NCBI GenBank assembly: GCA_016748015.1
Contig: JAAOMT010000786.1
Span: 623,814 to 687,813 of the forward strand
Length of the DNA: 64,000 bases
Direction: 5' to 3'
Source of the DNA: Geosiphon pyriformis uo1
Taxonomy: Eukaryota; Fungi; Glomeromycota
Position 1 is the stretch's first letter. The number at the start of each line of letters is the position of its first letter. Under the pieces are notes generated by a model, which worked only from the letters and a program-made list of their open reading frames with translations, was not told the DNA's origin and searched no databases. Of this stretch, positions 18,512-52,784 are shown piece after piece. The translations under genes were made by a program, and so were the position numbers.

Positions 18512-19044
18512 TATTATTCATAAAAAAAGTACAAGTAAAAAAAACAGATAAAAAAATAAATCAATAGAAAAATAGAACTTAGCAAGTAAGCATAATGTTA
18601 AAAAATTATGACATATTGCTTAGCAATATATATATTGTTAATAAATTATGGCATACTATTTAGCAATGAACATATTGTTAAAAAATTATGATACATTGTT
18701 CAGCAATAAACATATTGTCAGAGAAAATAAGATATATTGCTCAAAAAAATGTGAGATCTTATATAACAAAAATTATGTATATATAATAAGAATATTAAAA
18801 ACAGAAAAAACAAAATTGATATTGACAATCAATTAAAACCTATTAATTACTTAATATCTCTCCTTTCAAAAGATAGTTTTTTACAACTTGAAATAGAATC
18901 AGACTATATATTAATAAAATATTAATTATTACCTAAAATCTATGTTATTATCACTTGATTAAAAAATATTAATTAATTCTATGCTATCAATACTCAATGT
19001 TAATAAAATCCAATACTTAATTATACTAGACCAATAGCTCTTGA
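18512..19044 (+). mobile_element. Old family-1-related solo LTR, 5' half
   Basis: Starts TATTATTCATAAAAA (transition-decayed TGTTACTCATAGAAA). Carries the TATA block AATTATGTATATATA..AACAGAAAA and CAATAGCTCTTGAT, as in LTR 23631-24498. Left flank ACAT. Confidence 0.75.
18579..18740 (+). repeat. 40-bp tandem repeat x4 in U3 of the old LTR
   Basis: Units start at 18579, 18620, 18660 and 18700. Consensus is approximately TTAGCAATAAACATATTGTTAAAAAATTATGACATATTGC. Confidence 0.85.
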
Positions 19045-19792
19045 TGATTATTTAGGGTCTTAAAGCAAATAACAAATCCATAACTTGGTGCTCAATTGAT
19101 GATGTTGGTTTCTGAAATATTGTTATCTAAAGGTTTTGGTTAAGTCCTTGGTATAATGGACAGAAATTCAATAGTTGTTTATTTATAGCTTCTCAGAATT
19201 GCAATTCTGTCAATTTTTTTTTTCAGCTTGATGGCCAGTATTCTTCTGATAAGTAATCCATAATTCTTTTATATGTTCTACCCACTCACAGAGGTCTTTT
19301 ACCAGGCAATTTTTGACATCAATAACTCAGTGCTTTAATCCTTTAATCAATTAGTACACAACAAAAAAAATAAAAAAATAAAAAAAAAAAATAAAAAAAA
19401 TAAAAAAATAAGCCAAGGCAATAAAAGTTAGTATTCTGTCAATAGCCATGATCAAGAGCTATTGTTCTAGTGTGGTTAAGTATTAATTTCTATCAACATA
19501 AAGTGTTGATATAGGAGAGTAGATTTGAGATAGTGAATAATTATTTATTTGATATTTGTGATGTAAAAGATTGCTTAGATCAAATCTAAACTGCAAAGTC
19601 TGTTTTTTTTACTTCTAATGCTACCAATATATATACATAATTGAGATTCCTCAATTTTTTACACCAGGAATTCTGAGATTTCTGAAATTTTGCAATTTCT
19701 TTGAGAGGAATTCTGGAATTCTATATTTATTACAGCTATTTTTGATTGGCTAATTTATATGCTAATATACTTCCTATATTCTATGAATAACA
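19045..19792 (-). repeat. 3' LTR of element 1a (outer ~10 bp deleted)
   Basis: Direct repeat of 48146-48969 with an internal deletion in the repeat array. Confidence 0.9.
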
Positions 19793-19806
19793 TTATTTCT
19801 TTTTCT

Positions 19807-20435
19807 TTAATATTGAGCTTTGTCAAGATTTTCTAATTCTAATTCTTCATCTTTGAGTATTTCTTGAACTTTTTTTTCAAGAATTACCTGTGCTATTTTG
19901 TTCTGTAATTCTTCAAATTGAGTGTTGGTTATTTTTCCCATTTAGTTAATAGTAATAGAGTTCATTTCTGGATTGAGTAAGATTCTGGTTGATCTTGAAA
20001 TCTAGTGTGTAGCCAATAAATGGCTCTTGCTTATGTGATCAAATTGTTTTTTTCCACAAATTGTTTCAATTGTTGCAGTATTGTTGAGTCAAATAATTGT
20101 TTTGTTTTATCTGTATACAAGTCTTAAATATTCAAGTATTGTCCCAAATAAAAGTAGCAAAAGTTTTTTGGAAATTGTTGTATCTACCAATTTCAAGTTT
20201 CTATAGTCAACTTTTAATATTGGGTAACTTTTGGTTGTGTTTCTATTGCCAATTTCACTTTTGTAATTATTTTGTTCACAATGTTTTCTGTTTTCTTTTA
20301 TATTTTATCTCGTGGTTTTTTTCTGGTGTTTGTGTATCTGATAGTTTGTTGGTTGATTGTAATTTCGATTTTTTGTTGTTGAATCAGTTAAAAAAGTTGT
20401 TGTGCTAGTAAGTGAATGCCATCAGTAATCTCCAT
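19807..20435 (-). pseudogene. ORF3 of element 1a, unknown function
   Basis: Starts ATG GAG ATT ACT GAT (MEITD) and ends AQY*. Homologous to 32262-32891. Confidence 0.8.
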
Positions 20436-20489
20436 TTTTTTTCTGTTGTCTTTTGTTATGTATACTATATCTTTATATACTTTTTTGGT

Positions 20490-21874
20490 TGTTCAATTTT
20501 ATGTATTTGGTTCAATGATTATAATTGGTTCTAGATCTTGTGGAATCTCATCTGGTTTGACTAATATTCTCTGTACTCCTAATTGTAAAATATTATTGAT
20601 AGATGATGATGCTATATAGTAATATTGTTTTAGTCAATCACTATGTGCTGCTTTGGTTAAGATTTTGTTGTTCAACCTTAATTTATAAGCTCTATTTCCA
20701 AGAATTTCTTCTATGTGAAATGGTCTGTCTCATTTAGGATCAAATTTTCTACTCCATTGTTTTTTTACTTTAATATAATATAAAAGTACTTTGTTTCCAA
20801 TTTTGAATTTAACTGGTTTTTCTGGTAGTTGGTTATTGTGTTTTTTTTTTGTTTTTCTTGTGACTTTTGGATGTTATTAGCTGCTCTTTGCTGTGTGTTT
20901 TCTAGTATCTCTATTAAGTCATATGTTCTTTTCAACAATGTTCTTTGAAAATTTTCTTCTGTTATTGATTCTGTTAGATATGTTTTGACTTCTATCTCAA
21001 CTGATAAGGTTGCTGTTCTACCATATACTAATTTGAATGGTGTTGCTTGTATAGTGTCTTGCTTTATTGTCTGATAAGCAAATAATACTAATGGTATAAT
21101 TAAATCCCATTCGTTCTGGTTTTTTTGACTGATTTTGACAATGGCTTCACACAATGTTCTGTTAAATCTTTCAACTAACTCATTTGTTTGTAGATAGTAT
21201 GGTGATAATAATAGTTTTTTGATTCCAAATCTTTGACTTAATTCTGCTAGTATTCTATTTACAAAGTGAATTCCTTGATCTGATAATAGTTCTTTTAGAC
21301 ATCTATGTTAATATATCAAATCTTGATGAACGAATTTGACAATGGATTCTACATCTGCTCTTTGAATGGCTTTTGCTTCTGGCTATTTTGTGAGATAATC
21401 TATGACTATTGCAATATATCTGTTGTTTCTACTGGTTATTGTTAATGGTCTGACTAAGTCAATTCCAATGTGATCAAATGGTTGTTCTATTTTGATTAGT
21501 CTCAATAGTTTACTGGATTTTGTTCCTCCTTTTTTCTGACAAGCATCACAATTTTGCACATATTAGATAATATCTGGATATATTAATGGCCAATAGTATC
21601 TTTTTCTGGTTCTTTTTATGGTTGTTTTTTTATGAAAATATCCTGCTGTTGGGTCTGAATACATGTTGAATAATATTATCTCTTTCTCTGGTTCTGTGAT
21701 TACTCTGGTTGGTTGATCTGGATTTTTTTTGTTTTTCTGGTAAAATATATTTTGATGGTTGATAAAATATTTTGATTGTTGTTTGATATGGCTTCATTTT
21801 TTTGAAGATAATTTTTCCTTAAACTGCCGAATATTTATATAATATTTAAGTTGTTAGTATTTCTGTATATTCAT
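20490..21874 (-). pseudogene. Integrase ORF of element 1a
   Basis: ATG MNIQKY at 21874; CEAIVKISQK..VLFAY..TPFKLVYGR. Confidence 0.85.
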
Positions 21875-21906
21875 TTTTTGTTATATTTTTTTGGGTTGAA
21901 ATGTTT

Positions 21907-23630
21907 TTAGATTTGTCTCATTCACGACAAACCATTGGCATTCCTATTGTCTTTTCTCTTTTTATAATATACTGTGAATATATATGGTGATAGTACTATT
22001 TTCCATCTTGCATGGTAATCATCTCCAAATTCTTGCTTTTAGATTGCAGTTAATCTCTTGTAATCAGTGTACACATCAAACTTTTGACTCAAGTATTCTT
22101 TCCATTTGGTAATAGCCCAATAGATAGCTAAGTGTTTAAATGCTGAAGTTCTATAGTTTTTTTCAGCTGGATTTAAGCTTTTGCTAGCATATGCTACTGG
22201 ATGTTTTCTTCTATCTGAACTTTTTTGCAATAATACTACTCCTAATGCTTGGCCTGATGTATCAGTGGTAATGATGAATAGTTTGCTGTGATCTGGATAC
22301 ATCAACACTAAAGCTTGAATAAGCTTTCTTCTTAATATATTGAAGACTTCTTGCTGGTTTTTTGTTCATTCATATTTGGTGTTTTTTGATTGAAGCTGGT
22401 ATAATGGCTGAGCCAGTTTAGAAAAATCTTTAATAAAGTGACAATAGTATCCAGCAAATCCCAAGAATGCTCTTAGTTCTGTCAAGTTGGTTGATACTGG
22501 AAAGTTCTTGACCACTTCAATTTTGTCTGGATTTATTTTGATACTATTTTTGTTTACAATATGTCCCAAAAACTTGAGTTCCGTTTTTCCAAAGAAACAT
22601 TTGGTTGTATTTAGCTTTAATCCGGCTCTTCTTAGTCTTTCAAACACTTGTTGGAAATAATGTAGATGATCATTGAATGTTTTTGAGAACATATTAGTGT
22701 TATCCAAATATACGACTACTGATTTTTATAGCAGTTTCATATAGACAATTTCCATCAGCTGTTGAAATGTGGCTGGAGTATTTATTAAACCAAATGGCAT
22801 TACTTCAAATTCAAAGTTTTCTTCCCAAGTTGTAAAAGCTGTTTTCTTCTTGTCTTCTGGTTTCATGATTATTTGCCAATAACTGCTGTCTAAGTTTAAA
22901 GTTGAGAACCATTTTTTTCCTTCAAAAGCATTGAATAGTTCTTGAATTTTTGGAGTTGGGTAGCTATTATTTTTGATTACTTCATTTAATTTCCAGTAAT
23001 CCACACAAAAGTGTACTTTTCCATTCTTCTTACAGACTAGTACTATTGGTGACAACTATGGGCTTATTGATGGCTGAATTAATCCATTGTCGAACATTCG
23101 ATTGATTTCTTAATGAATAATCTCATGGCTGGCTGGTAGTACTCTGTATGTTCTCTGTTTAATTGGCATTGCATCTCCAGTCTTAATTTGGTGTTGGATA
23201 ATGTCAGTTCTGCCAAATTCGTTTTTACTGGCAAAGATGTTATTAAAATTGTTGAATAACATTTTGAGCTGCATATGTTGTAGTGGATCTAAGTTTTTCA
23301 TGTTTATTTGTTCCAATTGTTCTGGTTAGAGCAAATAACATTTGTTTCATCCATATATTGTTTGTGATATAATATCCACATATTCACAAAGTTGTGGAAA
23401 GTCTGGAATGGTGTCTGACAGTTGGTCTTCAATTTCAGTGGTTAAGTATCCAATAGTGGTTCCTTCTGGTATCTTGATGACATTTTTCATGTTGTTGTAA
23501 ATGAGAATTTTGATATAACTGTGGTTCTTAACTGGTATGTGTAGATTGACTAATCCAATTTCTCTTAATTTACAAAGTATTGCTTCTGCCTCAAAAATCT
23601 GAACCTAATTCTTTACTTTTCTCTCTATGG
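21907..23630 (-). pseudogene. RT and RNase H of element 1a
   Basis: SPIVLV..FCVDY, VMPFGLINTPATFQ, YLDN, FLGH, TTDTSG..HPVAYAS, VYTD. Confidence 0.92.
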
Positions 23631-24498
23631 TGTTACTTATAGAAATATAGGAAATATATTAGCATAATTATTAGCCAATCAGAAGTAAGCATAGTAAATG
23701 TGGAATTCCAAGATTCCTCTCAGGAATTGCAGGATTCCAGAAATTTCAGGATTCCCGACAAGGAATTGCAGGATTCCAGAATTCTAGGATTCCTCTCAAA
23801 GGAATTGCAGGATTCCAGGAATTCCAGAATTCCTGTCGTGAAGAATCGGGAAATTGAGGAATCCCAATTATGTATATATAGTGGTAGTGTTAGAAACAGA
23901 AAAGACAGAATTGATACCACAGAATCTTTAGCCAAGAAACAAAATTATCAAATAAATAATTATTCCATATCTCAATTCACTCTCCACTATCAACACTTCA
24001 TGTTGATAGTAATTGATACTTAACCACACTGGAACAATAGCTCTTGATTATGGCTATTGACAGAATACTAATCTGCCAAACCACCTGGGCTTATTTCTTT
24101 TCTTTCTTTATTTTCTTGTATTTTCTTTTCTTTATTTTATTTGATTTGATTGTTGTGTATACTAATTGATTAAAAGATTAAGCACTGAGTTATTGACATC
24201 AAAGATAGCCTGGTAAAAGACCCAAAAATAAGGATAGGATTTTATATATTATCAGATAGCTTACTAGAAAGACACAACTGCCAGACTAAATCTGGCCACC
24301 ACACTGAGAAAGAAATTGGGAAAACAACTTAAGAATACAACCACTATCAACCTTATTGAATCTCTGTCCATTATACAAAAGACTCAACCAAAATCTTCAG
24401 ATAACAATACCTTTAGAACATTATCAACGGAACTAGCTTTAAGCACTAAGTTATGGGTTTGTTATTTAATTCAACAGCCAAAATACTCACCTGTAACA
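23631..24498 (+). repeat. 5' LTR of element 1b
   Basis: Direct repeat of 32905-33772 with inverted termini TGTTAC/GTAACA. CCAAT at ~23675 and TATATATA at ~23873. Confidence 0.97.
23699..23866 (+). repeat. GGAATT(G/C)CAGGATTCC-type tandem array in U3
   Basis: Repeated GGAATTCC/GGATTCC quasi-palindromes between the CCAAT and TATA motifs. Also present in the other 1a/1b LTRs. Confidence 0.9.
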
Positions 24499-24500
24499 TT

Positions 24501-24517
24501 TGGTGCTTCCTGTGAGG
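24501..24517 (+). promoter_or_regulatory. Primer-binding site (possibly elongator tRNA-Met)
   Basis: TGGTGCTTCCTGTGAGG lies 2 nt after the LTR. Element 1a has TAGTGCTCCTTGTGAGG. The tRNA identity is tentative. Confidence 0.8.
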
Positions 24518-24518
24518 T

Positions 24519-27500
24519 ATAATCCTACAGAAAACCAGCACCAACAACACCAAACCAAAAGTGGTAGAATCAGAAACCATAGAAGCAAACCATTTAAAAT
24601 TCGCGAAAGCTTTATTTCAACACTATTGTCAACACTTAGAATTAAACCACAATCATATATCTACTGAATCAGTCTTTAACTTCTACATCAACGAAAAAAT
24701 TTCCTCTTTGTTAGGAACACCAGTGAATACTGAATTAGCCAGGAAAACTTTCTACAGAGAATTAATTCAAAATACCAATCTGCCAACAAATCACAATTTT
24801 GCTTCCATCATTACTGAAATCAACAAAGAAATTGAACATCACATCCAACAAAGATATCCAATTACTTATGCCAATAAAGGCAAAGGGAAACTACAAACAC
24901 CAGCAGTAATACCCAAAAAGATACAACCACCCACTTAGAAGAAAACAAGAATTGAATCACCAACTGACCCATCCTATCACTACACACTGGGAAGTGTCAT
25001 CAATATAACATCAGCAAGTGCGTCCACATCAAATGTAATATCAACATTCGGATGACTCCCATTCCAAAGTAAACAAAGAAAAACAGATCTATTAGGACCA
25101 TATGGCGAATATTTTGAGGGATTTAAATCACAATCATCAATCCCATCAGGAATTTGATCACCACCACCTCAACCAGACTTTGGAACTGCTACTCTGTGGG
25201 AACTATCTGAAGAAGAAGAGGAAAAAGAATTGAAAGATCAAGAATTTATTTACCAAAACCTGATCACTGAAAGCCCGGAAGTTGAAACCCTGAATCTTCA
25301 AGCTTAGCAAAATTTAAATATAGAAAATTTGGAAATCAAAACTCTGAATCAGCAAAGGCAGAACAATCCAAACCCCGAATTAATTAATCAGCAAAACTTA
25401 CCTCTGGTAATTGTCATCAATCAACCACCAATTAATTCAGTAGCCAAACCTATACAGCAGCCATTTCAACTACCACTCCAACAACCAGGACAACAACAAC
25501 AACTGTTTCAATAGCCACCACAACAACCCAACTTAGATCCAATGGCCTATGCACCAATCACAAAACTTGACAACTTTACCGGCAAAGAGGATGATGCTCA
25601 GGTATGGCTGAATGATATAGAAAAAGCCATCGCAGCCAATGAATGGAATGATGCTCAAGCAATGCAAGCCATTCCATACTTTTTTAAGGATACTGCTGAT
25701 TTATGGTACCAGAGCTTGATTAATAAACCACAAGATTTTAATGCCTTCAAAGTGGAATTCTTAAGATACTTCAGCAACAATAACAGCATCAATAGTCTAG
25801 TCAATGCATTCACTACCATAAAACAAGGAGAAACTGAAACAGTCACAACTTACCTGGAATGCTTTCATTAAAACCTACGCCAAATTCAAGCAATTGACGC
25901 CAACTATTTCACAGCACCAAATCAGTTTATCCATGGCCTGTGCAGCAGCATCTTGTAACATGTACGTCCGTTGCATTCAGGTACCCTTCAAGACGTAGTT
26001 ACACGCGCCAGAGATTTTGAATCCACTGAGTCAGAGACTAACCACGCCCAAGCTGTTAATCTAGTAATAAACGGATTATCTAAATTGGATTCCAAATTAG
26101 AGAAGTTTAGTGAATCAATTAATAAGAGATTAAAAGGATACTTAGCTGACAATTACGCCATTTATCAGTCTCCACAATGATGCAATAATCAAAGAAACTC
26201 TAATTATGCCCAAAATCAACCATGTTCATCTTCATCAACCAATCAACAGTGGCAACAGGAAATGTATATCTGCCACTATTGTGGTAAACAAGAACATATT
26301 CAAATTGACTGTCACCAGCGTCTAAATAACCAATGATTGGGAAATCAATATCAAAACCCCGATTGCCAGTTCCAAACTCCGAATCATTATCCAAATTAGG
26401 GTTAAGACCAATATCAAAATAATTACCTGCTAATAACACAGCAACCAATCTATCAACCACCAGTATATCAACCTCCGATTTATCAGCTGTAGCCACAAGT
26501 AATATATCAACCACAGCCACCAATCATCTATCAACCCCAACCAATTTAAACACCACTCCAGAATCCAGCTCAAATGACATCAGGCAACTCTTGATCCAGA
26601 GTCACTCAAAACTGGAGATCGGCGATAGTTGTTTACCAACTGATTCTCAGTTTGCTAAACCCACCATCAGGATCACACACCCAGAATTTGGATACCAGTC
26701 GCATCCAAAACCCAAATTCCCAACACTATTTAAGTCTCCTGGTTAACCCAGAAGATGCCACATCCTACAACATGGAATCCAATCAGCACATACCTCCCAA
26801 CACGATTCCACTAGCAACCATCTCTAGTGACAAATCCCTAGCAGCCATCTTTCCTTTTGAACTCGAAGAAAACACACTGATACCATTATTTAGTAGAGCC
26901 ACCCTCGAAGAAAAACCTATAACAGCAATGTACACAGATGCCAGAGTTGATGGTCACTCCATCAAACTCATCCTAGATAGTGGATCAGCTGGCAGCATAA
27001 TCACAAGACAGCTCATAGATCAATTAGGTTGCCGAGTTGATCGAGCTGCCAGCACTAGAATCATTACTGCCGATGGTGCCACAAAAACACCTATCGGCAA
27101 GATAGATGATTTCCTTATAGAAATTAATAGCATCATAGTACTCATCAAAGTCATAGTAATGGATGCCACCCAATACCAAGCCCTAATTGGTAATGACTGG
27201 CTGTCCAAAACCAACGCCGTGCTCAATTGGACAACCCAAGAGTTAATACTCAGCCAGAATGGAAGACACACATGAGTACCAGCAATATGTGGCCATTTCA
27301 AGGCTACCAACAACATGGTACCACTAATCGACTTTGACAAGAAGAAACTAAAACCTACCTGGAAAGCCTACCAAGTGTTGTGGGCTGATGAAGAGCACAA
27401 TGAACTGCCACCAATACTCTTCTGGGACAACAACAACAAGGGAAAAGGGAAACAAAAGGAAGAACTTACCTGGGAAACTGATGACCTGATATGAACCGAC

Positions 27501-30500
27501 AATAACGAGAGCAAACCGACTTCAAGCTGGGAAAGGGAAGAAGACAAAAAAAATAAAATAAAAGGAAAAGAAAAAGAGACCACTCAAACCACCACTGCTT
27601 ATAAAATCTACACCATACCATAATGATCTACTTATCGTCAATTTAAGCTTATATGTGTTGATTGTGACAAGAAATTGTTGTCAATGGATGCATGCTGTGG
27701 GGACGATGAGAAATATTCAATGGCAACTAGGTTCTATTGCCACCCATGTGTTCTTAAATGCTTTGGAAGACCAAAACAAGTAGGGAAATAGAACAACCAG
27801 TTATGCTTAGCTTGTGAAGAGACTCTATTGGACAAAGGAATATGGCATGACATTCCTGGATGTGAAGGAACATGCAATGTATTGTGTCAATACACGATTC
27901 TGATTAACAACTGGATTAAAAAGGGGACACCAATTGAAGCCGCTTGGCAAAGAACAGTGTGACAATTAGACAGTTGTCCACATGACGATAACGAAATTTG
28001 GAAAATGACAACCACAAAAATTGAAGGCACATCGCCAGAAGAAATCTGGACAATTAAAAACAACCCACCAGAATCCATTGAGCTTGACTGGGACGCAAAG
28101 CCAGTCATAAATTTTCTAGAACCAGAAGAGTTCCATAAATACTACCAAAACTTGGCACCTACTAGAGAAGAGCAAGAACAATGGCTAGTACAGTTAAATA
28201 CAAGACTGTGTTACCATTGTTTAATTTCCAGTGACTTTGAATATTGTGATGATTGTGACCTTATTTACAATCCACCACCATGCATGATCTACTCGATCCC
28301 TGAAGAAGAAGAACCAATCAGCAGCTGTGCATCAGAATCAGAATCGCTGATCAATCGTGATCCAGACTCTAATGATAACAATGAAAACACTGGTTCCAGC
28401 TCCATTCAAAATGGCAATAATGACGAAAACAATTCAGACTCAGATTCAAATCCCGATTTAAACTATGAACAATATATTGCACTATTAGATCTCTCCAAGA
28501 AACAAGAGTTGAAATGGTATAGTGACAATAGGGAAGGTATTATGCCAGAACGTGTACATGATACTAATGCAGAGTTTGATCTGAGGTATCCAGGAAAAGA
28601 GATCATCAAATTGGAGCCACATTTACGCATCTGCATTGATCTGAAAATAGCACTAAAAATTCTGGCAACAACAATGGTTCAATTAGCATCTAGGAGTAGT
28701 CTAGCAAAAAGAGGAATTAATATAAGAGGAGGAATAATTGACGCAGGATATATAGGAAATATCATCGCAATGTTATAAAATGACTCAGAAAAGGCCTATA
28801 TAATAGAATCCAATGAAAAGATAGCACAGGCAATATTCCTGCCTCTGGTTAGAATAGCTCAGTTAGTATCAGTGGGAAAGAGGGAGAAATTAGGAATAAC
28901 AGCGAAAGGAATACAGAGATTTGGATTGATGGGTAAAATAGATGTACCAGTTAATATGGCAAAGGAAAAAATTGTTGGCCAAGGAGAAATTATCTCAACC
29001 GGTCAAGCTATTTCTATTCCACCATATAGCCAGTACATGTTAGCAATAGAAAGGAAGGAAAAGAAGCAAGAACAGATTTTTGAAGCTGAAGCAAACCTTT
29101 GTGAATCAGGAGAGATTGGACTGATCAATTTCCACATACCAGCCAAGAGCTATAGCTGCATAAAAATTCCCATCTACAACAACACTGGCAATATCATCAA
29201 CATACCAGAAGGAACTACCATCAGATATTTAACCACAGAAATAGAAGACCAACCACCAAACCTCATTCCAGACTTTCCACAACTTTGTGAATATGTTGAC
29301 ATCACATCACAAACAATCTATGGACGAGACAAATGTTATTTGCTCCAACCAGAACAATTGGAACAAATGAACATAAGAAACTTAGATCCACTCCAATGTA
29401 TACAGCTCAAGATATTACTCAACAATTTCAACGACATCTTTGCCAGCGAAAATGAGTTTGGCCAAACTGACATTATCCAGCATCAGATCAAGACTGGAGA
29501 TGCAATGCCAATCAAACAAAGAGCATACAGAGTGCTGCCAGCCAGTCACAAAATCATTTGTCAAGAGATAAACAGAATGCTTGACAATGGGCTAATTCAA
29601 CCATCAATGAGCCCATGGTCGTCACTAGTGGTACTCATCTATAAGAAAAATAGAAAAATCCGGTTTTGTGTAGACTACAGGAAACTTAATAGTGTAACTC
29701 GTGGAGACAGTTATCCAACTCCACAAATACAGAAATTATTCGATGCTTTCAGTGGGAACAAATAGTTCTCAACATTAGATTTGAACAGTGGTTACTGGCA
29801 AGTAGCCATGAATCCAGCTGACAAAGAGAAGACAGCATTTACTACTAGAGAAGGGAATTTTGAATTTGAAGTGATGCCATTTGGCTTAACCAATGCCCCA
29901 GCAACTTTCCAATGGCTAATGGAAATTGTTTATACTGGTTTATTGTGGAAATCAGTAGTTGTATACTTGGACAACACCAATGTATTCTCAAAGACATTTG
30001 ATGATCATCTTCATCTTCAACAAGTGTTCAAAAGACTAAGAAAAGCAGGACTAAAGTTAAATGTGACAAAGTGCTTCTTTGGCAAGACAAAACTCAAATT
30101 CTTGGAACACATAGTCAACAAAGATGGCATCAAAACAGATTCAGAGAAAATAGAGATAGTAAAGAACTTTCCAGTGCCAACCAATATAACAAAACTGAAA
30201 TCATTCTTGGGATTCACTAGCTACTATTGTCATTTTATCAAGAACTTTTCCAAGATAGTGCAGCCACTCAACCAACTGCAAAACAAAAATACGAAATATG
30301 AATGAACAGAAAGTCAACAAGAAGCTTTTGATATTCTGAGAAAAAAGCTCATCCAAGCTCTAGTACTGATCTATCCAGATTACAGCAAACCATTCATCAT
30401 CACCACTAATGCATCTGGCCAAGCATTGAGAGCAGTATTATCTTAGAGGACTGGACAGCAGAGAACATCCAGTAGCATATGCCAGCAGAGATTTAACACC

Positions 30501-30762
30501 AGCTGAAAAGAACTATGGAACACCGGAACAAGAACACTTAGCAATATACTGGGCCATCATGAAATAGAAAGAATACTTGAGCCAGAAGTTTGAAGTATAC
30601 ACAGATCACAAGGGATTAACATCACTCCAAAAACAAGAATTTGGAGATGGAAGACAGTCAAAATGGAAAATGGCACTCACACCATACAATTATACTATAC
30701 ATTACAAAAAAGGAAAAGACAATGGAAATGCTGACGGTTTATTGTAAATAAGACAAATCTAA
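24519..30762 (+). pseudogene. Gag-PR-Cys-rich domain-dUTPase-RT-RNase H polyprotein of element 1b
   Basis: ORF fragments from 24561 to 30305 are all in one frame. Capsid FTGKEDDAQVWL, knuckle CHYCGKQEHIQIDC, protease LILDSGSAGSII, dUTPase, RT (VMPFGLTNAPATFQ, YLDN) and RH. One 2-bp deletion at ~30450. Confidence 0.92.
28540..28935 (+). pseudogene. Trimeric dUTPase domain within the polyprotein
   Basis: Motifs AEFDL, ASRSSL, GIIDAGYIG, EKIAQAI and G..RFG correspond to dUTPase motifs I-V. Confidence 0.92.
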
Positions 30763-30825
30763 GAACATTTCAACCCAAAAATATAATAAAACCAGAACAA
30801 TACCAACAAAAAAATACAACAAAAG

Positions 30826-32207
30826 ATGAACATACAAAAATATTAACAATTGCAACATTATCTAAACACTCAACAGTTCAAAAAGAATTTATCTCAAATG
30901 GAATGAAAGAGTATCAAACAACAATCAAAATATTTTATCACTCACCAAAATATACTTTATCGGAAAAATAGAAGGGATCCAGATCAACCAACCAGAGTAA
31001 TTACGGAGCCAGAAAAAGAGACAATATTATTCAACATGCACTCAAATCCAACAGCAGGACATTTTTACAAAGAAGCAACCATGGAAAGAACCAGAAAAAG
31101 ATACTATTGGCCATCAATGTACCCAGACATCATTCAATATGTTCAAAATTGTGATGCTTGTCAGCGAAGAGGAGGAACAAGACCCAGTGAACCATTAAGA
31201 CCAATCAAAGTGGGACAACCATTTGACCGTATTGGAATTGATTTAGTCAGACCATTAACAATTACCAACAGAGGAAACAGATACATAGTGGTAGCCATGG
31301 ACTATCTCACTAAATGGCCAGAGGCAAAAGCAATTCAAAGAGCGGATGCAGAATTCATTGCCGAATTCATTCATCAGGATTTGATTTATCAACATGAATG
31401 TCCAAAAGAATTATTATTAGACCAAGGAACTTATTTTGTGAACAAACATTAACAGAATTGAGCCAAAGATTCGGAATCAAGAAACCATTATCATCACCAT
31501 ACCATCCACAAACCAATAGATTAGTAGAAAGATTCAACAGAACATTGTGTGAAGCAATAGCTAAACTCAGCCAAAAAAACCAGAACAATTGGGATTTGTT
31601 AATACCATCAGTACTATTTGCTTATCGGACAATAAAGCAAGATACTACACAAACAACACCATTTGAATTAGTATATGGTAGAACAGCAACACTACCAGTA
31701 GAAATAAAAGTCAGCACATACCCAACCAAACCAATAACAGAAGAGAATTTCAAAGATACATTGTTGAGAAAAACATATGACTTAATGGAAACATTGGAAA
31801 ACAACCAAAGAAGAGCAGCTGATAATATTTAAAAGTTACAAGAAAAACAGAAAAAAAGACACAATAGTTAACTACCAGACAAACCAGTTGAATTCAAGAT
31901 TGGAGACAAAGTATTACTATATTGTACCAAAGCAGAAAAACAATGGAGTGGAAAATTCGACCCCAAATGGGACGGACCATTTCACATAGAAGAAATTTTA
32001 AGAAATGGAGCTTACAAATTAAGATTGAATAACAAAATTTTAACCAAAGCAGCACATGGAGATCGACTAAAGCCATATCGTAACATCACATTACCATCTA
32101 CCAGTAATATTCCACAATTAAGAGTACAGAGAATACTAGTCCAACCAGATGAGATTCCATGAGATCTGGAACCAATTGTTATTATCAACAACAACATGTT
32201 AAATTGA
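30826..32207 (+). pseudogene. Stand-alone integrase ORF of element 1b
   Basis: ATG MNIQKY; HHCC (H..GH..YYWP..CDAC); DDE core (GIDL, DQG, ERFN); GPY/F module WDGPF. No chromodomain is evident. Confidence 0.9.
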
Positions 32208-32261
32208 TCAATTAAAAGAATATATAAAGATATAGTAGACATAACAGGAAATATCAAAAAA

Positions 32262-32891
32262 ATGGAAATTACAGACAACATTCACATATTAGCACAACAA
32301 CTCTTTCAATTAATCCAACACCAGAAAATGGAGATTACAATCAATCAACAAACCATTCAATATCAAGATACTAGAAAGACATTGCAACTCAGAACACTGA
32401 AGAAAACTGAAAATATGGTGGACAAAATCATGGTGAAAGTAAAATTAGCAATAAAAGAATCGACAAAAGAGTCACTATATCAAGAGTTAACTAAAGAAAC
32501 TTGGAATTGGTAGATACAACAATTTCCATGAAACTATTGTTATTTTTACTTGGGACAACATGTAAATATCCAGAATCTATATACGGATAAAACAAAGCGA
32601 TTATTCGACAAAAGAATACTACAACAATTAGAACATTTTGTGGGAAAGAACAACTTATCTACACAAGCCCGAGCCATATACCAAATACACACAGCATTTC
32701 AGGATAAACCAGAAATATTGCTCAACAGAGCAATGGATATGGTTACCAGTAATCAATTGGGAAAAATTACCAATGCTTAATTTGAAGAATTACAGACCCA
32801 AATAACACAAGTAATTCTCGAAAACGAAATCCAGGAAATACTTTAAGAGGGGGAATTACATGAGTTGGATTTCGATGAAGCTCAATATTAA
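32262..32891 (+). pseudogene. ORF3 of element 1b (~209 aa), unknown function
   Basis: One 630-nt frame from ATG to TAA, interrupted only by transition-type stops. Homologues are present in all four elements. Confidence 0.82.
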
Positions 32892-32904
32892 AAGGAGGGA
32901 ATAA
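32891..32904 (+). promoter_or_regulatory. Polypurine tract
   Basis: AAAGGAGGGAATAA immediately before the 3' LTR. Confidence 0.85.
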
Positions 32905-33772
32905 TGTTACTCATAGAAATATAGGAAATATATTAGCATAATTATTAGCCAATCAGAAGTAAGTGTAGTAAATGTGGAATTCCAGGATTCTTCTCAGGAA
33001 TTGCAGGATTCCAGAAATTTCAGGATTCCTGACAAGGAATTACAGAATTCCAGAATTCCAGGATTCCTTTCAAAGGAATTGCAGGATTCCAGGAATTCTA
33101 GGATTCCTGTTGTGAAAAATTGGGGAATTGAGGAATCCCAATTATGTATATATAGTGGTAGTATTAGAAACAGAAAAGACAGAATTGATACCACAGAATT
33201 CTTAGCCAAGAAACAAAATTATCAAATAAATAATTATTCCATATCTCAATTCACTCTCCACTATCAACACTTTATGTTGATAGTAATTGATACTTAACCA
33301 CGCTGGAACAATAGCTCTTGATTATGGCTATTGATGAAATACTAATCTGCCAAACTGCCTGGGCTTATTTCTTTTTTTTCTTTATTTTTTTGTATTTTTT
33401 TTTCTTTATTTTATTTGATTTGATTGTTGTGTATATTAATTGATTAAAAAATTAAGCACTGAGTTATTGACGTCAAGGATAGCCTGGTAAAAGACCCAGA
33501 AATAAGGGTAGGATTTTATATATTATCAGATAGCTTACCAGAAGGGCATGACTGCCAGACTAAATCCGGCCACCATACTGAGAAAGAAATTGAGAAAACA
33601 ACTTAAGAATACAACCACTATCAATCTTATTGAATCTCTGTTCATTATACAAAGGACTCAACCAAAACCTTCAGATAACAATACCTTCAGAACATCATCA
33701 ACGGAACTAGCTTTGAGCACCAAGTTACAGGTTTGTTATTTAATTCAACAGCTGAAATAATCACCTGTAACA
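32905..33772 (+). repeat. 3' LTR of element 1b
   Basis: 868-bp direct repeat of 23631-24498. Confidence 0.97.
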
Positions 33773-36700
33773 ATGGTTATCATGTATTGATTATATGGTG
33801 GAATGGAAATTGATTGATGAGTGGAGATAATTTTTCCCTTGTCAACAATTTTTTTTTCTGCCATATTAACTGATACATCTATTCTACCCATTTATTCAAA
33901 ACCCTGTATTTTTTTAGCTGTGATCCCTAATTCTTCTCTGTTTCCCATTGACACTAACTGAGCTATTTTTATCAGAGGTAGAAATATTGCCTGTGCTATC
34001 TTTTTGTTTGGCTCTATAATATAGGCTTTTTCAAAGTTATTCTGTAGTATTACAATGATGTTTCCTACATATCCTGCATCAATTATTTCTCTTCTGATGT
34101 TGATTCTCTTTTTCACTAAACTACTCCTAAATGCTAGTTGAATTATAGTTGTTAAAATTTCCAGTACTATTTTGAGATCCAGGCATGTGCATAAATGTGG
34201 TTCCAATTTGATGGTGTCCTTTCTTGGATATCTCAAATCAAACCTGGTATTGGTATTATGTACACATTCTGGTATAATGCCTTTATTGTTGTCACTATAC
34301 CATCTGAGTTCCTGTTCCTTGAAAAAATCAGAAAGCATGATGTATGTTTCAGGATTTGAATCAAAATTCAGATCACTATTATTTTCTTTGCCATATTGAG
34401 CAAAGCTAAAACTGTTGTTTTTATTATCATCATTGTCAGAGTTTGAATTGGAATTGAAAGTTGATTCCAATTCTGCTGTGCAGTTGCTAATTGGTTTTTC
34501 CTCTTCTGGAATTGTGTAGATCATGCATGGTAGTAGATTGTAAATAAGGTCACACTTATTACAATATTGAAAATCACATGGAATTAAACAGTGGTTACAT
34601 AGTTAGGTATTAATTTTTTCTAAATATTGTTCTTGTTCTTTTTGAGTGGATGCTAATTCTTAGTAGTGTTTGTGGAATTGTTCTGGATCCAAAAGATTTA
34701 TGACTAGTTCTGAGTTTCAGTTAAGTTCTATAAGTTCTGGAGAGTTATTTTTTATTATCCTGATTTCCTCTGATGACACGCCTTTGATTTTGGTGAGTGC
34801 CATTTGCCATATTTTGTTATCATTATGTGGACAACTGTCTAGACATTTTACTGCTTTTTTCTAGGTGGCTTCGATTAATGTTTTTTTTCTTACCTAGTCA
34901 CTTATTAAGATCATATACTGACATGATTCATCACATGTTTCTCTTCTCCCAGGAATGTCATTCCATATTTCTTTGTTAAAGAGAGTTTTGCTGCAAGCCA
35001 AACATGATTTGTTGTCTCATTTTTCTTGTCTTTTTGGTCATCCAAACCATTCAATGTTGCATGAATGGCAATAGAATTTAGTTGCTGTCTGCCATTTTTC
35101 ATTGTCACTACAGTATGCATTCATTGTGGACAATTTCTTGTCACAGTCAATGAATATTAATTTTGGTCAGCAATAGTTAGATAGTGGTGGTATGGTATAA
35201 ATATAAGGAATATGAGTGGCTGCAGTAATTAGAACTGGCTCTTTTTCTTTTCCTTTTGTCTTTTTTTCTCACTCCTAAGTTGATAATTTGTCCAGATTAT
35301 TGTCAGTTTCTCAGGCTTGGTTGGTATTCTAGATAAGTTCTTTTTTTTGTTTTCTTTTTCTGTTGTTGTCCCAGAAGAGTATTGGCAGTAATTTATGGTG
35401 GTCATTTTCAGCCCATAATACTTGATAGGCTTTCCAAGTAGATTTCTTCTCTTTTTCCTTAAACTCGATAAGTGGTGCTGTCATGTTGGTAGTTTTGAAA
35501 TGGTCACACATGGCTGGAACACATGTGTGTTGACTGTTCTGGCTAAGTTGAAGCTCTTGCGTGTTCCAATCAAGTGTTATGTTGGTTTTAGACAGTCAAT
35601 CATTACCAATGAGTACTTGGTATTGAATGGCTTCTATGACTAATATTTTGATTGACACAATGATGCTATTGACTTCTATAGGAAAGTCATCAATCTTGCC
35701 AATTGGAGTTTTGGTCACTCCATTAGCAGTGATGATTCATGCACTAGCAGTTCAATCAACTTGGCGACTTAATTGGTCTATGAATTGTTTTATAATGATG
35801 CTGCCAGCTGATTTATTGTCTAAGATTAGTTTGATGAATTGGTCATCAACTTTGGCATCAGTGTATATGATGGTAATAGATTTTTTTTCGAGAGTGGCTC
35901 CACTAAATAATGACATGACTAACAGTTCCTCAAGTTCAAATGGAAAGATGGCATTTAGTGATTTGTTCTCTGTGATGGTAGCTGGTAGAATATTGTTAGT
36001 GGGTGTTAGAGTGTAATTGGTTTTTTGGTTGTTGGATGGGACATTTTCTGGGATTACTAGAAGACTTAAATAGTTCTGAGAATTTGGGTTTTGGGTGTAC
36101 CCAACTCCTGAACTCTGCTGGCATGATTCTAATAGATAATCTAATGAACTAGGAATTGGTTGATAAACCACCATTGCCAATCTCCAGTTTTAGGTAACTC
36201 TCAATCTAGGGTTCTCTGATGTCATTTGAGCTGGATTTAATGTTGGTGTTTGAACTACAGGTGTCTGATAAATTATTTGTGGGTTGATATATTACTTGTG
36301 GCTGTGGTTGATAGATTAGGATTTGATATATAATTGGTTGATAAATAGACTGCTGCATTATTAGCAGGTAAGTAGGTTGATATTGATCTTGATTTGCATA
36401 ATGATTCGGTATTTGAAGTTTGTAATCAGGATTTCTATATTGATTTTTTGATTGTATATTACTATAAAAATGGCAGTTAGCTTGGATATGGCCTTGTTTA
36501 CCACAGTTGTGGCAGACATGCATTTCTGGCTGCCACAGCTGATTGAATGATAATAATGGACATAACTGATTTTGGAAACAATTCGCATTTTCTGAATTAT
36601 TGCATCATTGTAGTGGTTAATAAATTGTGTAATTGTCAGCTAAGTATCTCTTGATTTTCTGATTGATTGAATTACTGAATTGCTTTAGTTTGGAATCCAA

Positions 36701-37199
36701 ATCAAATAATCTATTCATTACTAGATTTACAACTTGTGCATAATTAGCTTCTAATTCAGCTAATTCAAAATCTCTGGTGCATGTAACTGTATTTTGTAGG
36801 TTGCCTAGATGTAGTGATTGTATGTATTGCAGGATGTTACTGTGTAATCTGTGAATAAACTGATTCAGGATCTGGGCTGTGGTAAAATAATTGGCATTGA
36901 TGCTTGTATTTGGTGCAAATTTTGATGGAAACATCTCAAGTAAGTGGTAACTGCTTCAGTATCTTCCTGTTTGATGGTGGTAAAGGTGTTGGCCAAGCAA
37001 TTAATGCTGTTGCTATTACTAAAATATCTTAAAAATTCCAATTTAAATGCATCAAATGTTTGGGGTTTCTGAGCTAGGCTATGATACCACAAGTTGGTGG
37101 CATCTTAAAGAAAATTGGGGATTGCTTAAAGAGCTCTGATGTCATTCCAGTTATTGGTGGTGATGGCTTTGACAATATCATTGATCCATGTTTGGGCAT
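33773..37199 (-). pseudogene. Element 1a polyprotein middle piece (Gag, PR, Cys domain, dUTPase)
   Basis: CHNCGKQGHIQANC, LILDNKSAGSII, RFDLRYP..RSSL..IIDAGYVG..KIAQAI. Confidence 0.9.
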
Positions 37200-38151
37200 T
37201 GTTACTGGAGGTTTTTGGTCTCTTTTCTTGAATGTTGTTAATGTTAATTTGCTGTGAATTCACATTCTCAGGAAATAGTTGGACCTCCAGTAACTGAATT
37301 TATCTTTAAATTATCTCTTATAATTTGAACTGCTGGGCTTATAAGTGGAATGGCCAATTCTGTGCCAGTTATTTTATGTAGTTATGTTGTAGTAAACGTC
37401 AACTCTTTTCCAGGAATTGCTTGTCTGAAAGCTCACTAAAAATTGTGTAGTTATTTTGCTATGAAAATCAACTCTTCTACAGGAATCTCGTCTATAGGCT
37501 ACCCTAATGATTGTAATAAGAAAAATAAAAGAAAATAAAAGAAATGTAAAAGAAATAGAATTTTGTCAAGAGAAACGTTTTCTATCCAGGCCTGAAGTCA
37601 CTAACAGTTTATTGAAATTGGTAGCTAATTAATTTTAAAACATTAGTTGTGTTGAGGGAATTTCAAGTGTAATAATTTAAGAATTTGGTTTTTGAATATT
37701 TAATTTTTATTTGATTTTGTAAAAGATAATTTGTTTCAATTAAGATATCTAACATAAGATACTATGGTAAGATACTATAAGAAGATACATTTTCTTGAAG
37801 AAAAAAGCTCTTTTTTTATACAACTTTTTGTAGTACTAGTCTTTAAACTTGTACTTTTCTTTTTGCTATAATTTGGGTGAACTAAAGATACATTTCGGCA
37901 AACTACAAATTATTTCACTGAACTATTGATTATTTCGGCCAATTTTCATTAATTTCGGCAAATTTTAACTATGTTAAATAGTTCAGGATATTGTGTAATT
38001 TAATCATCTTAATTTTTAGAGTACAAATCGGATTATTGATTGAGTAATGATTTTTGATAATTTGATTAAATAATAAGTAATAATCGAAATAATAATAATA
38101 TATGCTAATTAATAATAGGAATTATGAAGATAATTTTATGTTAATTAATAG

Positions 38152-38859
38152 CTAAGATTCTACTGGTAACATAATCTTCTCCTCAAAACTGAGCTTTATC
38201 AAAGTCCAAGCACTATCTGTAATATTAAAATAGTGGTCCAAGATAATTAAAGTAATCTGGTCTAAAAATTGTTGAAATTTTAGTTCTGTGAGCTTTCCAA
38301 TGTATTGAATCTTTATTGGATGAAGTATTGGGTTTTGTAAGACGTTTTTACAAGTGTTAAATAAATCATAGAGTCTAAATGCTGCTCTAAGTTTATAGCA
38401 AATGTTTGTTGGTCCAGCTGTTGTCTTAAATTCATTGTGAATTTGTTTTTGTATAGCCTCAGAAGTAATGTTGGTTGCTTCAAGTTCTAGTTTTCATTTA
38501 TAAAGTGTTTTTTCAATATGAAAATATCTATATATAAGAGTATGTTCATTGTTCTGTTTATTGAGAAATAGTAGAAGTTTTTGTTGCATTGTGGCATTTG
38601 ATAGAATGTCAATAGAGGCAGATAAAAAGTTCTCTTTTAGTGTTTGCTTCAAAAGTTTTGGTAATTGATTTTCAGAGTAACTTTTTGTTTTTCTTCTATA
38701 GGGGTGATAATTCTGAGAATTATTTACTACTGGAGCTGTGATTTCTTTTTGAATGTAATTAATTTGACTTCTATTAATCATTATAAATAAGTCAAAAAGT
38801 GTTTTCAAAGCTAACATTAATTTTTGGGATATTTGTTGAATATTTCGGGGAATAATCAT
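38152..38859 (-). pseudogene. ORF3 of element 2a
   Basis: MIIPRNIQQISQKLMLALK..YRYFHIEK..RAAFRLYDLF..IGKLTELKF. Homologous to 50511-51230. Confidence 0.82.
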
Positions 38860-39022
38860 GATAAAAATGACTAATTAATAAACAAAATTTGAAAAAAAAT
38901 AAAGAAAATTATTTTTGGATATAAGATTTTTATTTGTTTTTGGTTTTGAATATTTCTTCTAATTATTTACTATTTTTGATTTATGTTTTGTGTATTTTAA
39001 AGGAGTTTGTGAAAATGTTAAA

Positions 39023-40407
39023 TTAAGTGTTCAAGTTTGGTTGTTGTTCTATTATAATTATTGGTTTTAAATTTTGGAGAATATCTTCAGGATTAATTAA
39101 AAGAGAATGTGTACCAATTTGTAGAATTAATGGTTCAAGATTGTTTTTGGAATGATAGTGTTTCAATCAATTTCTATGTGCAACTTTTGCTAGTACTTTG
39201 TTATTAAGTCTTAACTTATATGATCCATTGCCTAGAATTTCGTAAATATAAAATAGTCCATCCTATTTATGTTCAAATTTTCTACTTTACTGTTTTTCAG
39301 CCTTTATTCTGTATAAGAGAACTTTATTTTCAACTTTAAATTTGTTGGTAACTGGTGGCAGTTTGTTGTCATGTTTTTCTTTTTGTAGAGCTTGGAAGTG
39401 TTCAATATGAGTGACTGCTATGTATCTTTTTTCTTTCAATGTACTAAGAAGTGTGTAAGCTTTTCTTTGGAGTGTTTTTTGAAAGTTTTTTTCATTGATT
39501 AGTTGCACTGGGTATGTTTCCACTGTGAAATTAATTGGTAATATTGCTGTCCTTCCATAAGTAAGATCAAATGGTGTGTGTTTTATAGTATCTTGTTTTA
39601 GTGTTCTGTATGCTAGTAACACTGATGGAATAAAAATATTCTATTTTTGCTCAAAATTTGTTGAGACTTTGGCTAATGATTCACATAATGTTCTGTTAAA
39701 ATGTTCTACAAGTCTATTTGTTTGGGGGTGATAAGGTGATAAAAAAAGTCTTTTAACATTAAATTATTCACAAATTTCTTGTATTAGGTTGTTCACAAAA
39801 TGTGTTCTTTAATCAGATAAAAGCTCAATTGGGCATTCATGTCTACAAATAATGTCTTCATAAATGAAATTTGCTACTGATTTTGCATTTGCTTTTTGAA
39901 TGGCTCTAGCTTTAAGCCATTTGGTGAGATAATCTACTGCAACTACAATATAGCAATTTTCTTGAATTGTGATAAGTAGTAGTCTGACTAAATCAATTCC
40001 AACTCTGTTAAAAAATTGTCCAACTTTGATTGAATTTAAAGGTTCTGTGGAGCAAGTTTTTTCTCTTCTTTGACAACTATCACAAGATTCTACATATTGT
40101 CAAATGTCTTTTTGCATGTGAGACCAAAAATAATGTTTAAGAGTTCTTTGGATTGTTCTATCTCTTCCCAAGTGTGCTGAAGATAGATCTGTGTACATGT
40201 TATATAGGATTGTTTTTATTCATTTTCTTGTACTAATCTGAATAATTGGTTTGGGTTTCTACAATTTTTGTAATAAATTTTGTTGTGATGTATGAAATAT
40301 TGTCTGAATTGGTGTTGTAATTAATGTTTTTTACTTGGAAACCAATTTTTTGGTATGGTAAAAGTTTCCAAATAGTTTTTAAGATTGTTGTAATTTCTGG
40401 GATCTAT
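39023..40407 (-). pseudogene. Integrase ORF of element 2a (start ATG>ATA)
   Basis: (M)DPRNY start; LLAYRTLKQDT..TPFDLTYGR. Colinear with 51353-52738. Confidence 0.85.
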
Positions 40408-40470
40408 TATTGTTTTGTTGTTTTGTTGTTTTGTTGGTAGTAGTAAGTTATAGTAGATTTGTTAATAGTG

Positions 40471-46102: not shown

Positions 46103-47088
46103 GAGAAAGCACCAAATGTTACTGAAGGTTTTTGGTCTCTTTTCTTAAATATTGTTAATGTTGATTTGCTGTGAATTCACGTTCTTAGGAAGTAGTTGGA
46201 CTTTCAGTAACTGAATTTATCTTCAAATTATCTCCTATAATTTGAACTGCTGGGCTTATGAGTGAAATGGCCAATTCTGTGCCAGTTACTTTATGTAGTT
46301 ATGTTGTAGTAAACATCAACTCTTTTTCAGGAATTCTTCATCTGGAAGCTCACTAAAAATTGTGTAGTTACTTTGCTGTGAAAATCAACTCTTCTACAGG
46401 AATCTTGTCTGTAGGCTACCCTAATGATTATGATAAGAAAAGAAAAAAAAAATAAAAGAAATGTAAAAGAAATAGAATTCTGTCAAGGGAAACGTTTTCT
46501 ATCCAGGTCTGGAGTCACTAACAGTTTATTGAAATTGGTAGCTAATTAATTTCAAAACATTAGTTGTGTTGAGGGAATTTCAAGTGTAATAATTTAAGAA
46601 TTTGGTTTTCGAATATTTAATTTTTATTTGATTTTATAAAAGGTGATTTGTTTTAATTAAAATATCTAATGTAAGATACTATAGTAAAATACTATGAGAA
46701 AATACATTTTTTTGAAGAGAGAAGCTCTTCTTTTATACAACTTGTTGTAGTACTAGTCTTTAAACTTGCACTTTTCTTTTTGCTACAATTTGAGTAAACT
46801 AAAGATACATTTCGGCAAACTACAAATTATTTTACTGAACTATTGATTATTTCGGCCAATTTTCATTAATTTCGGCGAATTTTAACTATGTTAAATAGTT
46901 CAGGGTATTGTGTAATTTGATCATCTTAATTTCTAGAGTACAAATCGGATTATTGATTGAGTAATGATTTTTGATAATTTGATTAAATAATAAGTAATAA
47001 TCGAAATAATAATAATATATGCTAATTAATAATAGAAATTATAAGAGTAATTTCATGCTAATTAATAGCTAAAATTCTACTGGTAACA

Positions 47089-51230: not shown

Positions 51231-51352
51231 TATAAGAGATTTGAAAATAAAAGAAAATTATTTTTGGTGTATGGGTTTTTATGTTATTTTTGTTTTGTTT
51301 TTGTGAGATTGTTTCTAAATTATAATGATATAACTATAATAATAAATTTAAA

Positions 51353-52738: not shown

Positions 52739-52784
52739 TGTTTGTTGTTTTGTTGTTAATTCAAATGGGTGTTGTTTTTATGTT

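Follow-up and report, generated by a model that had tools for sequence, protein, structure and literature searches.

A Ty3/Gypsy lineage of LTR retrotransposons with a separately encoded integrase in Geosiphon pyriformis

We describe a long terminal repeat (LTR) retrotransposon, element A, from a window of 64,000 nucleotides of the glomeromycotan fungus Geosiphon pyriformis uo1 (assembly GCA_016748015.1, contig JAAOMT010000786.1, positions 623,814 to 687,813; positions below are those of the window). The element is a Ty3/Gypsy variant defined by a separately encoded integrase (IN). Its first open reading frame (ORF1) runs from Gag through protease (PR) and reverse transcriptase (RT) and stops after RNase H (RH), integrase is a free-standing ORF2, and a third frame, ORF3, follows. 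The same break before integrase is found in the other copies of the window and in intact relatives, and it is not a product of decay.

Organization of element A

23627..23630, + strand: left target-site duplication (TSD), ATGG; right copy at 33773-33776
23631..24498, + strand: 5´ LTR, 868 bp, TGTTAC...GTAACA
24501..24518, + strand: primer-binding site (PBS), starting with TGG 2 nt past the LTR
24519..25541, + strand: N-terminal extension of ORF1, about 340 codons, coding signal, no ATG
25542..26320, + strand: Gag, capsid PF03732 (PF19259 weak) and a decayed CCHC knuckle near 26271
26937..27206, + strand: aspartic protease with DSG motif, in Gag frame (PF13975, E 1e-10)
27654..28290, + strand: cysteine-rich region in the same frame as Gag, no family match
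28536..28904, + strand: dUTPase, between PR and RT (PF00692, E 2e-15)
29457..30762, + strand: RT and RNase H, with a break of frame near 30445; ORF1 stop TAA at 30760-30762
30763..30825, + strand: RH-IN spacer of 63 nt without ATG (62% A, 5% G)
30826..32207, + strand: ORF2, free-standing integrase; ATG at 30826, YPYY-type N-terminus, H2C2, rve and SH3; frame break near 31443; stop at 32205-32207
32208..32261, + strand: IN-ORF3 spacer, 54 nt, no ATG, A-run ahead of the start codon
32262..32891, + strand: ORF3 of 209 codons, encoding a predicted soluble, helical protein of no known family
32890..32901, + strand: polypurine tract (PPT), overlapping the ORF3 stop
32905..33772, + strand: 3´ LTR

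LTRs, TSD, Pfam order and ORF coordinates bear out the arrangement LTR-PBS-ORF1-IN-ORF3-PPT-LTR that a preliminary description had read from the letters of the window. Pfam families follow along the ORF1 frame as Gag, PR, dUTPase, RT and RH, and then IN with H2C2, rve and SH3. All stop-to-stop fragments between 24516 and 30305 share one phase, so that the reported single frame from Gag through RT stands as well. The 4-bp TSDs of that description are exact for copies A (ATGG) and D (TCAG), but in copy C both sides have decayed and the left end of copy B is doubtful.

Copy A itself is decayed, with 24 stops within ORF1. Its frame breaks in RH (near 30445) and IN (near 31443) are both missing from copy B, and the former also from copies C and D. 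The two LTRs agree at 812 of 868 positions and differ by 55 transitions and 1 transversion. The U3 region of this family (23700-23850 and 32975-33125) contains imperfect repeats of a self-complementary unit.

The extension before Gag codes for protein, judging from substitutions per codon position between A and B (0.25/0.21/0.33) and from indels, 4/4 of which are multiples of 3. It contains no ATG in A or B (24519-25541 and 47089-48145) and no Pfam family match; ATA follows the PBS in both copies. ORF1 may begin at a decayed ATG, at a non-AUG start or through a spliced leader. A start within the LTR was rejected, as A vs B indels there break the frame and codon bias is absent. The window contains no tRNA gene, and hence offers no cognate for the PBS.

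The break before integrase

The window harbors three further copies, B to D, listed below. In 4/4 copies, which belong to two families, a homologous stop codon ends RH (ADxLSRxxQx-stop). The spacers that follow in A, B, C and D measure 63, 32, 63 and 46 nt, put RH and IN in relative frames 0, 2, 0 and 1, are A/C-rich (56-66% A, 0-5% G) and contain no ATG. After the spacer, integrase starts with M-N/D-x-x-x-Y, the first codon being ATA in C. In sequencing run X1, in which the family is present in very many copies, no alternative letter reaches 8% at the RH stop or the IN ATG, and some contigs have lost 32 nt of the spacer; the run possibly derives from the source sample and hence is not independent.

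One could object that the split merely reflects decay of dead copies. Each window copy carries 22-38 stops in the aligned part of ORF1, and the RT Trp codon at 30303 has become a stop in 4/4. This shared stop nevertheless fits the Trp-to-stop rate, as 9/28 Trp sites have decayed, and intact relatives have Trp at the same site. Moreover, relatives with unbroken ORFs of 1,100-1,600 codons end after RH, which refutes the objection; we regard it as practically impossible. The break before integrase is not decay, and the preliminary description placed it correctly. As a separate candidate, a shared recoding stop within ORF1 of the window copies was rejected, the sole stop common to 4/4 being the decayed Trp.

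Relatives of the element

A protein search with the integrase of copy D yielded 716 proteins (E<=1e-30, 253-805 aa). Among the 120 listed, nearly all have 400-440 aa and a homologous Met start, and five come from Rhizophagus irregularis, whose stand-alone integrases include intact ones (P0011, P0044, P0077). Because such a size-limited search excludes fused forms by design, genomic context was tested directly. Metagenomes were searched with an integrase alignment and the best 80 of 547 stretches analysed. In 64/80 loci the 5´ end of the IN frame lies on the contig; 58 of these have an ATG, which in 53 is within 12 codons of the expected place. RH is present upstream of IN in 37/80 loci and fused to it in 0. 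Integrase is thus separate in 37/37 metagenome loci with RH on the contig.

The frame of IN relative to RH is free, with frames 0/1/2 represented by 10/16/10 loci (36 of the 37; for L018 and L038 the scoring used a stop located earlier within the ORF1 tail). Stop and start overlap in 8/37 loci, by -1 (TAATG), -8 (three times), -11, -14 (twice) and -20 nt, and one further locus has a 2-nt gap; the junction of L024 is TAATG exactly. PPT-TGTTAY and TAACA-PBS junctions identify the relatives as LTR elements with ends as in the window.

Other features vary. The claim of no Gag-Pol frameshift holds for copy A, whose stretch from Gag through RT keeps one phase, but six relatives contain an in-frame TGA-CTA (UGA-CUA) in the PR-RT interval (L005:2882, L006:870, L032:3290, L034:902, L054:3358 and L068:1585), which we take to be a readthrough-type context. 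Five of them (L005, L006, L032, L034, L068) form a fully supported subclade in FastTree and L054 stands apart. Similarly, the window copies show the proposed three-ORF layout, but in nine relatives (L005, L006, L014, L015, L032, L034, L059, L068, L072) IN runs straight to PPT and LTR; part of the clade can therefore do without ORF3. The dUTPase is patchy, present in 4/115 long proteins (see below) besides the window families. Given UGA-CUA in six loci and the absence of ORF3 from nine, the defining trait is the free integrase and neither an unbroken Gag-Pol nor the number of ORFs.

Several relatives have additional regions. ORF1 of L011, L021, L030, L041, L042, L053 and L054 extends 216-586 residues past RNase H as an acidic, Cys/His-rich tail; that of L011 matches no Pfam family. 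A NUDIX domain was captured as third ORF in L020 (1945-2886) and inside ORF1 in P0302 and P0309. One integrase of the clade, P0523, is filed at NCBI under an Acidobacteria metagenome-assembled genome and is probably fungal DNA binned with a bacterium. No relative was found in a viral contig collection.

Phylogeny

A protein search above 768 aa, a size that favours fused forms, gave 120 rows, of which 5 were dropped as short RT-RH matches; 66 of the 115 remaining long proteins are without IN and 49 with it. After removal of 8 concatenated gene models and 2 duplicates, 125 rows entered FastTree. There one clade (0.911) unites the 4 copies of the window with 16 loci and 55 proteins that lack IN. 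The remaining IN-less row, P0352, sits among fused rows and keeps an IN zinc-finger match. IQ-TREE with 61 hand-picked rows (35 split, 26 fused) needs one change of state, supported by 96/80. Fused P0318 is sister of the split clade (99/99), has a short RH-IN linker and shares with the clade the integrase N-terminus and the C-terminal EPIVVI ending. A fused sister with matching integrase ends makes it likely that the split is derived, if the midpoint root is right.

The trees consist of unnamed database neighbours, and affinity to known elements was read from PDB searches with relatives. RT-RH of L011 finds Ty3 on top with 347 bits (next solved RT, 207 bits), and IN of P0001 also finds Ty3 first (110 bits). 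Both enzymes are therefore closest to the Ty3 type, in line with the preliminary assignment.

The ORF3 protein

A conserved family of about 140 aa occupies the ORF3 position in 33/80 loci according to a hidden Markov model (HMM) and comprises 562 clusters at 50% identity. Its model (148 aa) is all-helical with a predicted local distance difference test (pLDDT) of 97. Foldseek found no match to it in PDB and BFVD at E<=0.001; the best VIA-align Z is 4.5, and the best ESM Atlas score of 0.85 is a lead only. A Pfam scan of 122 members returned no family in more than 2. Hydropathy peaks over 19 residues at 0.27 in P0121 and exceeds 1.6 in 1/150 family members. Having no transmembrane stretch, ORF3 is not env.

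Every one of the 120 matches listed for ORF3 belongs to Geosiphon pyriformis, with the top one reaching 90% across the full length, which points to this fungus as the likely host. An independent HMM of the family scored the Geosiphon ORF3 of copy D at 10.9 bits (top shuffle 8.4), L002 at 7.8, C at 5.5 and A at -6.0, which lends clear support to copy D alone. The L002 ORF3 in turn matches the proteins of copies A, C and D (E values from 1e-9 to 1e-13), which suggests a link of the Geosiphon proteins to the family through L002. The C-terminal helices have a similar order in Geosiphon and family models, whose underlying alignments overlap. With a median isoelectric point of 8.8, ORF3 might, as a guess, be a basic helical partner of nucleic acid or integrase.

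A hairpin ahead of the integrase AUG

In 21/80 loci a hairpin of about 40 nt, always on the sense strand, directly precedes the IN AUG (e.g. L011:5193-5229, L035:1141-1177). It consists of a 3-bp basal stem, a 12-nt purine bulge starting with GAAAGC, a 6-bp stem and a conserved CA/GUGA cap, and in most carriers ends 0-9 nt before the AUG (3 nt in 12/19 measurable loci). Across 17 aligned copies, 98.4% of cells of its 11 pairs are paired and 6/11 pairs have compensatory changes; 4/500 shuffles reached as high covariation. A scan of 12 loci against Rfam identified no family; its one hit, to MIR397, was below threshold and lay outside the motif. The best hit of its RNA model in the window has E 0.53, which we take as chance. 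Absent from the window, the hairpin is a feature of a subclade, where it may serve initiation, packaging or processing.

How might integrase be expressed?

We suggest, with confidence slightly above even, that IN and ORF3 are translated from the full-length RNA by termination-reinitiation. The 40S subunit would stay on the RNA past the RH stop and cross the short AUG-free spacer, or no spacer at all where stop and start overlap. Restart at the AUG, which lies in strong context, would give IN at a few percent of Gag-Pol, with protease cleavage dispensable, and ORF3 would arise by a repeat of the same step. The dosage of IN would then likely be set at translation. Since IN would not be carried in Gag-Pol, it would have to enter particles by binding RNA, Gag or ORF3.

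There are several observations that agree with reinitiation. At the IN start a purine occupies -3 in 52/58 loci and G occupies +4 in 49/58, compared with 55% and 31% at internal ATGs. The 25 short spacers together hold 7 ATGs against 23.5 expected. IN-ORF3 junctions echo the RH-IN pattern, with gaps of -1, -4, -8, -11, +2 and +3 among others. Precedents exist: UAAUG of the fungal virus CHV1 supports 2.5-4.4% reinitiation and tolerates 1-10 inserted A (PMC2699510, in part), and the SART1 retroelement reinitiates at a stop-start (PMC10275272, in part).

Other points speak against it. Reinitiation following a long ORF is exceptional (PMC10275272, in part). UGGGA, a motif of the termination upstream ribosome-binding site (TURBS) type, precedes the stop in just 3/37 loci and is not enriched. 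Spacers of three relatives measure 365, 521 and 727 nt and contain 7-12 ATGs each, at chance level; together with the length of ORF1 they disfavour simple scanning from the stop. In one subclade, scanning could be impeded by the stable hairpin that lies 0-9 nt ahead of the AUG. Finally, metagenome loci are not independent (near-copies include L025/L026 and L035/L038), which inflates significance.

The alternative that survives best, although we consider it unlikely, gives IN and ORF3 an unspliced subgenomic mRNA of their own, which would either start at a promoter inside RT/RH or the spacer or be cut loose at the hairpin by RNA processing. It would account for the strong Kozak context, the AUG-poor leaders, the long ATG-containing spacers of three relatives and the free RH-IN frame relation, and T-rich tracts do occur in some spacers. 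However, in nine loci the distance from stop to start lies between -20 and +2 nt, a coupling that would be superfluous for a separate promoter, and on inspection no promoter motif is apparent across the spacers.

Less probable still is internal ribosome entry on genomic RNA, by way of an unstructured A-rich tract in Geosiphon and the covarying hairpin in the one subclade. The base composition of the window spacers and the position of the hairpin, with its 11 pairs and compensatory changes, mostly 3 nt before the AUG, would suit such entry, but overlap-type junctions leave no spacer for it, and the hairpin is limited to its 21 carriers, none of them in the window, and resembles no Rfam family.

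A spliced RNA in which a 5´ leader is joined to an acceptor site ahead of the IN AUG appears quite improbable. Spliced pol or env RNAs are known from other LTR elements, and in both family-1 LTRs a T-rich tract precedes TACTAAT, a sequence similar to a branch point. Yet in the 90 nt ahead of the AUG, a branch point plus YAG occurs in 4/37 loci vs 5.1 in shuffles, and no AG lies ahead of the IN ATG in copy B.

It is highly improbable that readthrough or a frameshift at the RH stop still yields a fused RT-RH-IN. In its favour, IN is in the RH frame in copies A and C and in 10/36 relatives, and the clade uses what is presumably a readthrough context elsewhere (UGA-CUA). But each of the three frames is represented, spacer lengths run from -20 to more than 300 nt, further stops lie in the in-frame spacers of A and C, the stop context is unconserved and the Met is kept at the same place. 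The free frame relation excludes a fusion made by recoding.

Other copies and repeats in the window

19043..48969, - strand: copy B, of the same family as A, broken up by the insertions of A and C
21909-21907, - strand: RH stop of copy B, followed by a 32-nt spacer and the IN ATG at 21874
37200..47088, - strand: copy C, family 2, with a single frame from Gag to RH
40473-40471, - strand: RH stop of copy C, followed by a 63-nt spacer and an IN start that reads ATA; ORF3 from 38859
49556..59445, - strand: copy D, family 2, TSD TCAG
52787-52785, - strand: RH stop of copy D, followed by a 46-nt spacer and the IN ATG at 52738; ORF3 from 51230

Copy A is inserted within copy B. DNA identity amounts to 72-78% between A and B, 75% between C and D and about 65% between the families (RT and IN). 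The proposed two families are thus confirmed, but their PBSs are dissimilar in part only, as those of A and C both start with TGGTGCT. In copy D both RT-RH and IN are unshifted, and the left end reads TATTAC. The TSD of copy C reads GCAT/GTGT and would descend from one GCGT.

A partial, inverted LTR of family 1 adjoins the 5´ LTR of copy B (48970-49354). Decayed LINE-type elements (long interspersed nuclear elements) with RT, RNase H and an ORF1 that contains an RNA recognition motif lie at 693-2213 (- strand), 8369-10166 and 10230-16869 (+ strand). In 4 contigs of run X1, position 29000 is joined to 30906 by a deletion that removes RT, RH and the start of IN; this derivative is likely a non-autonomous subfamily.

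Novelty and significance

No description of a split-IN Gypsy clade was found in the literature, with Repbase, GyDB, Dfam, most subscription journals and supplements outside the scope of the search. The parts available of PMC11952901, bioRxiv 2021.03.30.436303, PMC3248453 and PMC2774666 mention no split integrase, and the curated repeat library for arbuscular mycorrhizal fungi of PMC11952901 may contain these consensus elements. As a candidate for an undescribed clade, the lineage has gained substance, in the form of a split-IN clade of RT-RH (96/80).

In canonical LTR elements, Pol provides for both the dose of integrase and its entry into particles; the split clade must make and package integrase otherwise. 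Its junctions come in hundreds of natural forms (overlap, A-rich spacer, structured hairpin), which offer material for study of reinitiation after long ORFs in fungi. The clade also explains many stand-alone proteins annotated as "integrase core domain" in Rhizophagus. LTR expansion in Geosiphon reaches 41.2% of the genome, a figure for LTR elements as a whole and not for this clade (PMC11952901, in part); the clade probably accounts for much of it.

A broader scenario can be put forward, which we hold to be rather doubtful as a whole. A widespread fungal Gypsy clade would have swapped polyprotein processing of IN for a polycistronic design. A new RNA element located where IN begins would restart ribosomes or recruit them, and could double as the site at which free IN attaches to the genomic RNA for packaging. 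ORF3 would be a partner in that step with a new fold, and free YPYY integrase genes would represent the kind of intermediate that stands behind Ginger1.

Comparison with known systems

The elements share with Metaviridae of the single-ORF type (DGLT-A) the LTRs, PBS, PPT, TGTNR termini and one gag-pol frame, and with the family at large the order Gag-PR-RT-RH-IN and a Ty3-like RT and capsid. As expected of members, two LTRs with PBS and PPT enclose an interior within the range of 3 to >15 kb, and domains follow in the order capsid, nucleocapsid, PR, RT, RH and IN. A single gag-pol ORF is a standard option in Metaviridae (PMC7879559), DGLT-A being an example (PMC5911963, in part). The ICTV profile gives IN inside pol as canonical and env as the sole third gene (PMC7879559). 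In contrast, IN of the window clade occupies its own stop-bounded ORF, fused to RH in 0/37 relatives and 0/4 window copies, and ORF3 is a small soluble protein; errantivirus-like elements have a surface and transmembrane protein as third ORF, which ORF3 does not resemble. Because IN lies outside pol, we file the clade as a non-canonical Ty3/Gypsy lineage. A chromodomain, the mark of chromoviruses, was found neither in the Pfam scan of the window nor among the 120 integrase matches listed.

The order PR-dUTPase-RT is shared with fungal Gypsy elements that have dUTPase between PR and RT (Postia PosPlaTy3-5, Phanerochaete, Tuber Tmt1), for which the available part of PMC2864245 describes no split IN. 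With CHV1 and SART1 the clade has in common overlapping or adjacent stop and start codons; in those systems reinitiation was shown by experiment, whereas here it is proposed, ORF1 is much longer than the upstream frames there, and a spacer separates stop and start at most junctions.

The preliminary description had also proposed a pararetrovirus-like translation strategy. Caulimoviridae (TAV of cauliflower mosaic virus) likewise carry several ORFs in series on one RNA, but the window clade has LTRs and integrase and an RT far closer to Ty3 (see the bit scores above). No TAV-like gene was detected, ORF3 having no Pfam, PDB or BFVD match, and this proposal is left unsupported, although ORF3 might act analogously without such a resemblance.

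YPYY integrases occur in some Gypsy groups (Athila/Tat, Cer1, Gypsy-1-I_RO, DGLT-A1) and in Ginger1 DNA transposons (Bao et al. 2010, PMC2836005, in part). Integrase of the window clade starts with an aromatic motif of about 40 residues before H2C2, which judged by eye fits the YPYY description, and the 4-bp TSD and TGTNR ends are shared too. The available part of PMC2836005 mentions no LTR element with a separate IN ORF. The clade differs from Ginger1 in comprising full LTR retroelements with direct LTRs and RT-RH, not transposons with terminal inverted repeats, and it has no OTU or Ulp1 tail and no CCGG target preference (TSDs ATGG, TCAG). In Ginger1, however, integrase is likewise a gene with its own Met. 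By this analogy, a stand-alone integrase gene is a plausible step toward Ginger1, and for the route from LTR element to DNA transposon, left open by Bao et al. (PMC2836005, in part), the split clade offers a concrete candidate.

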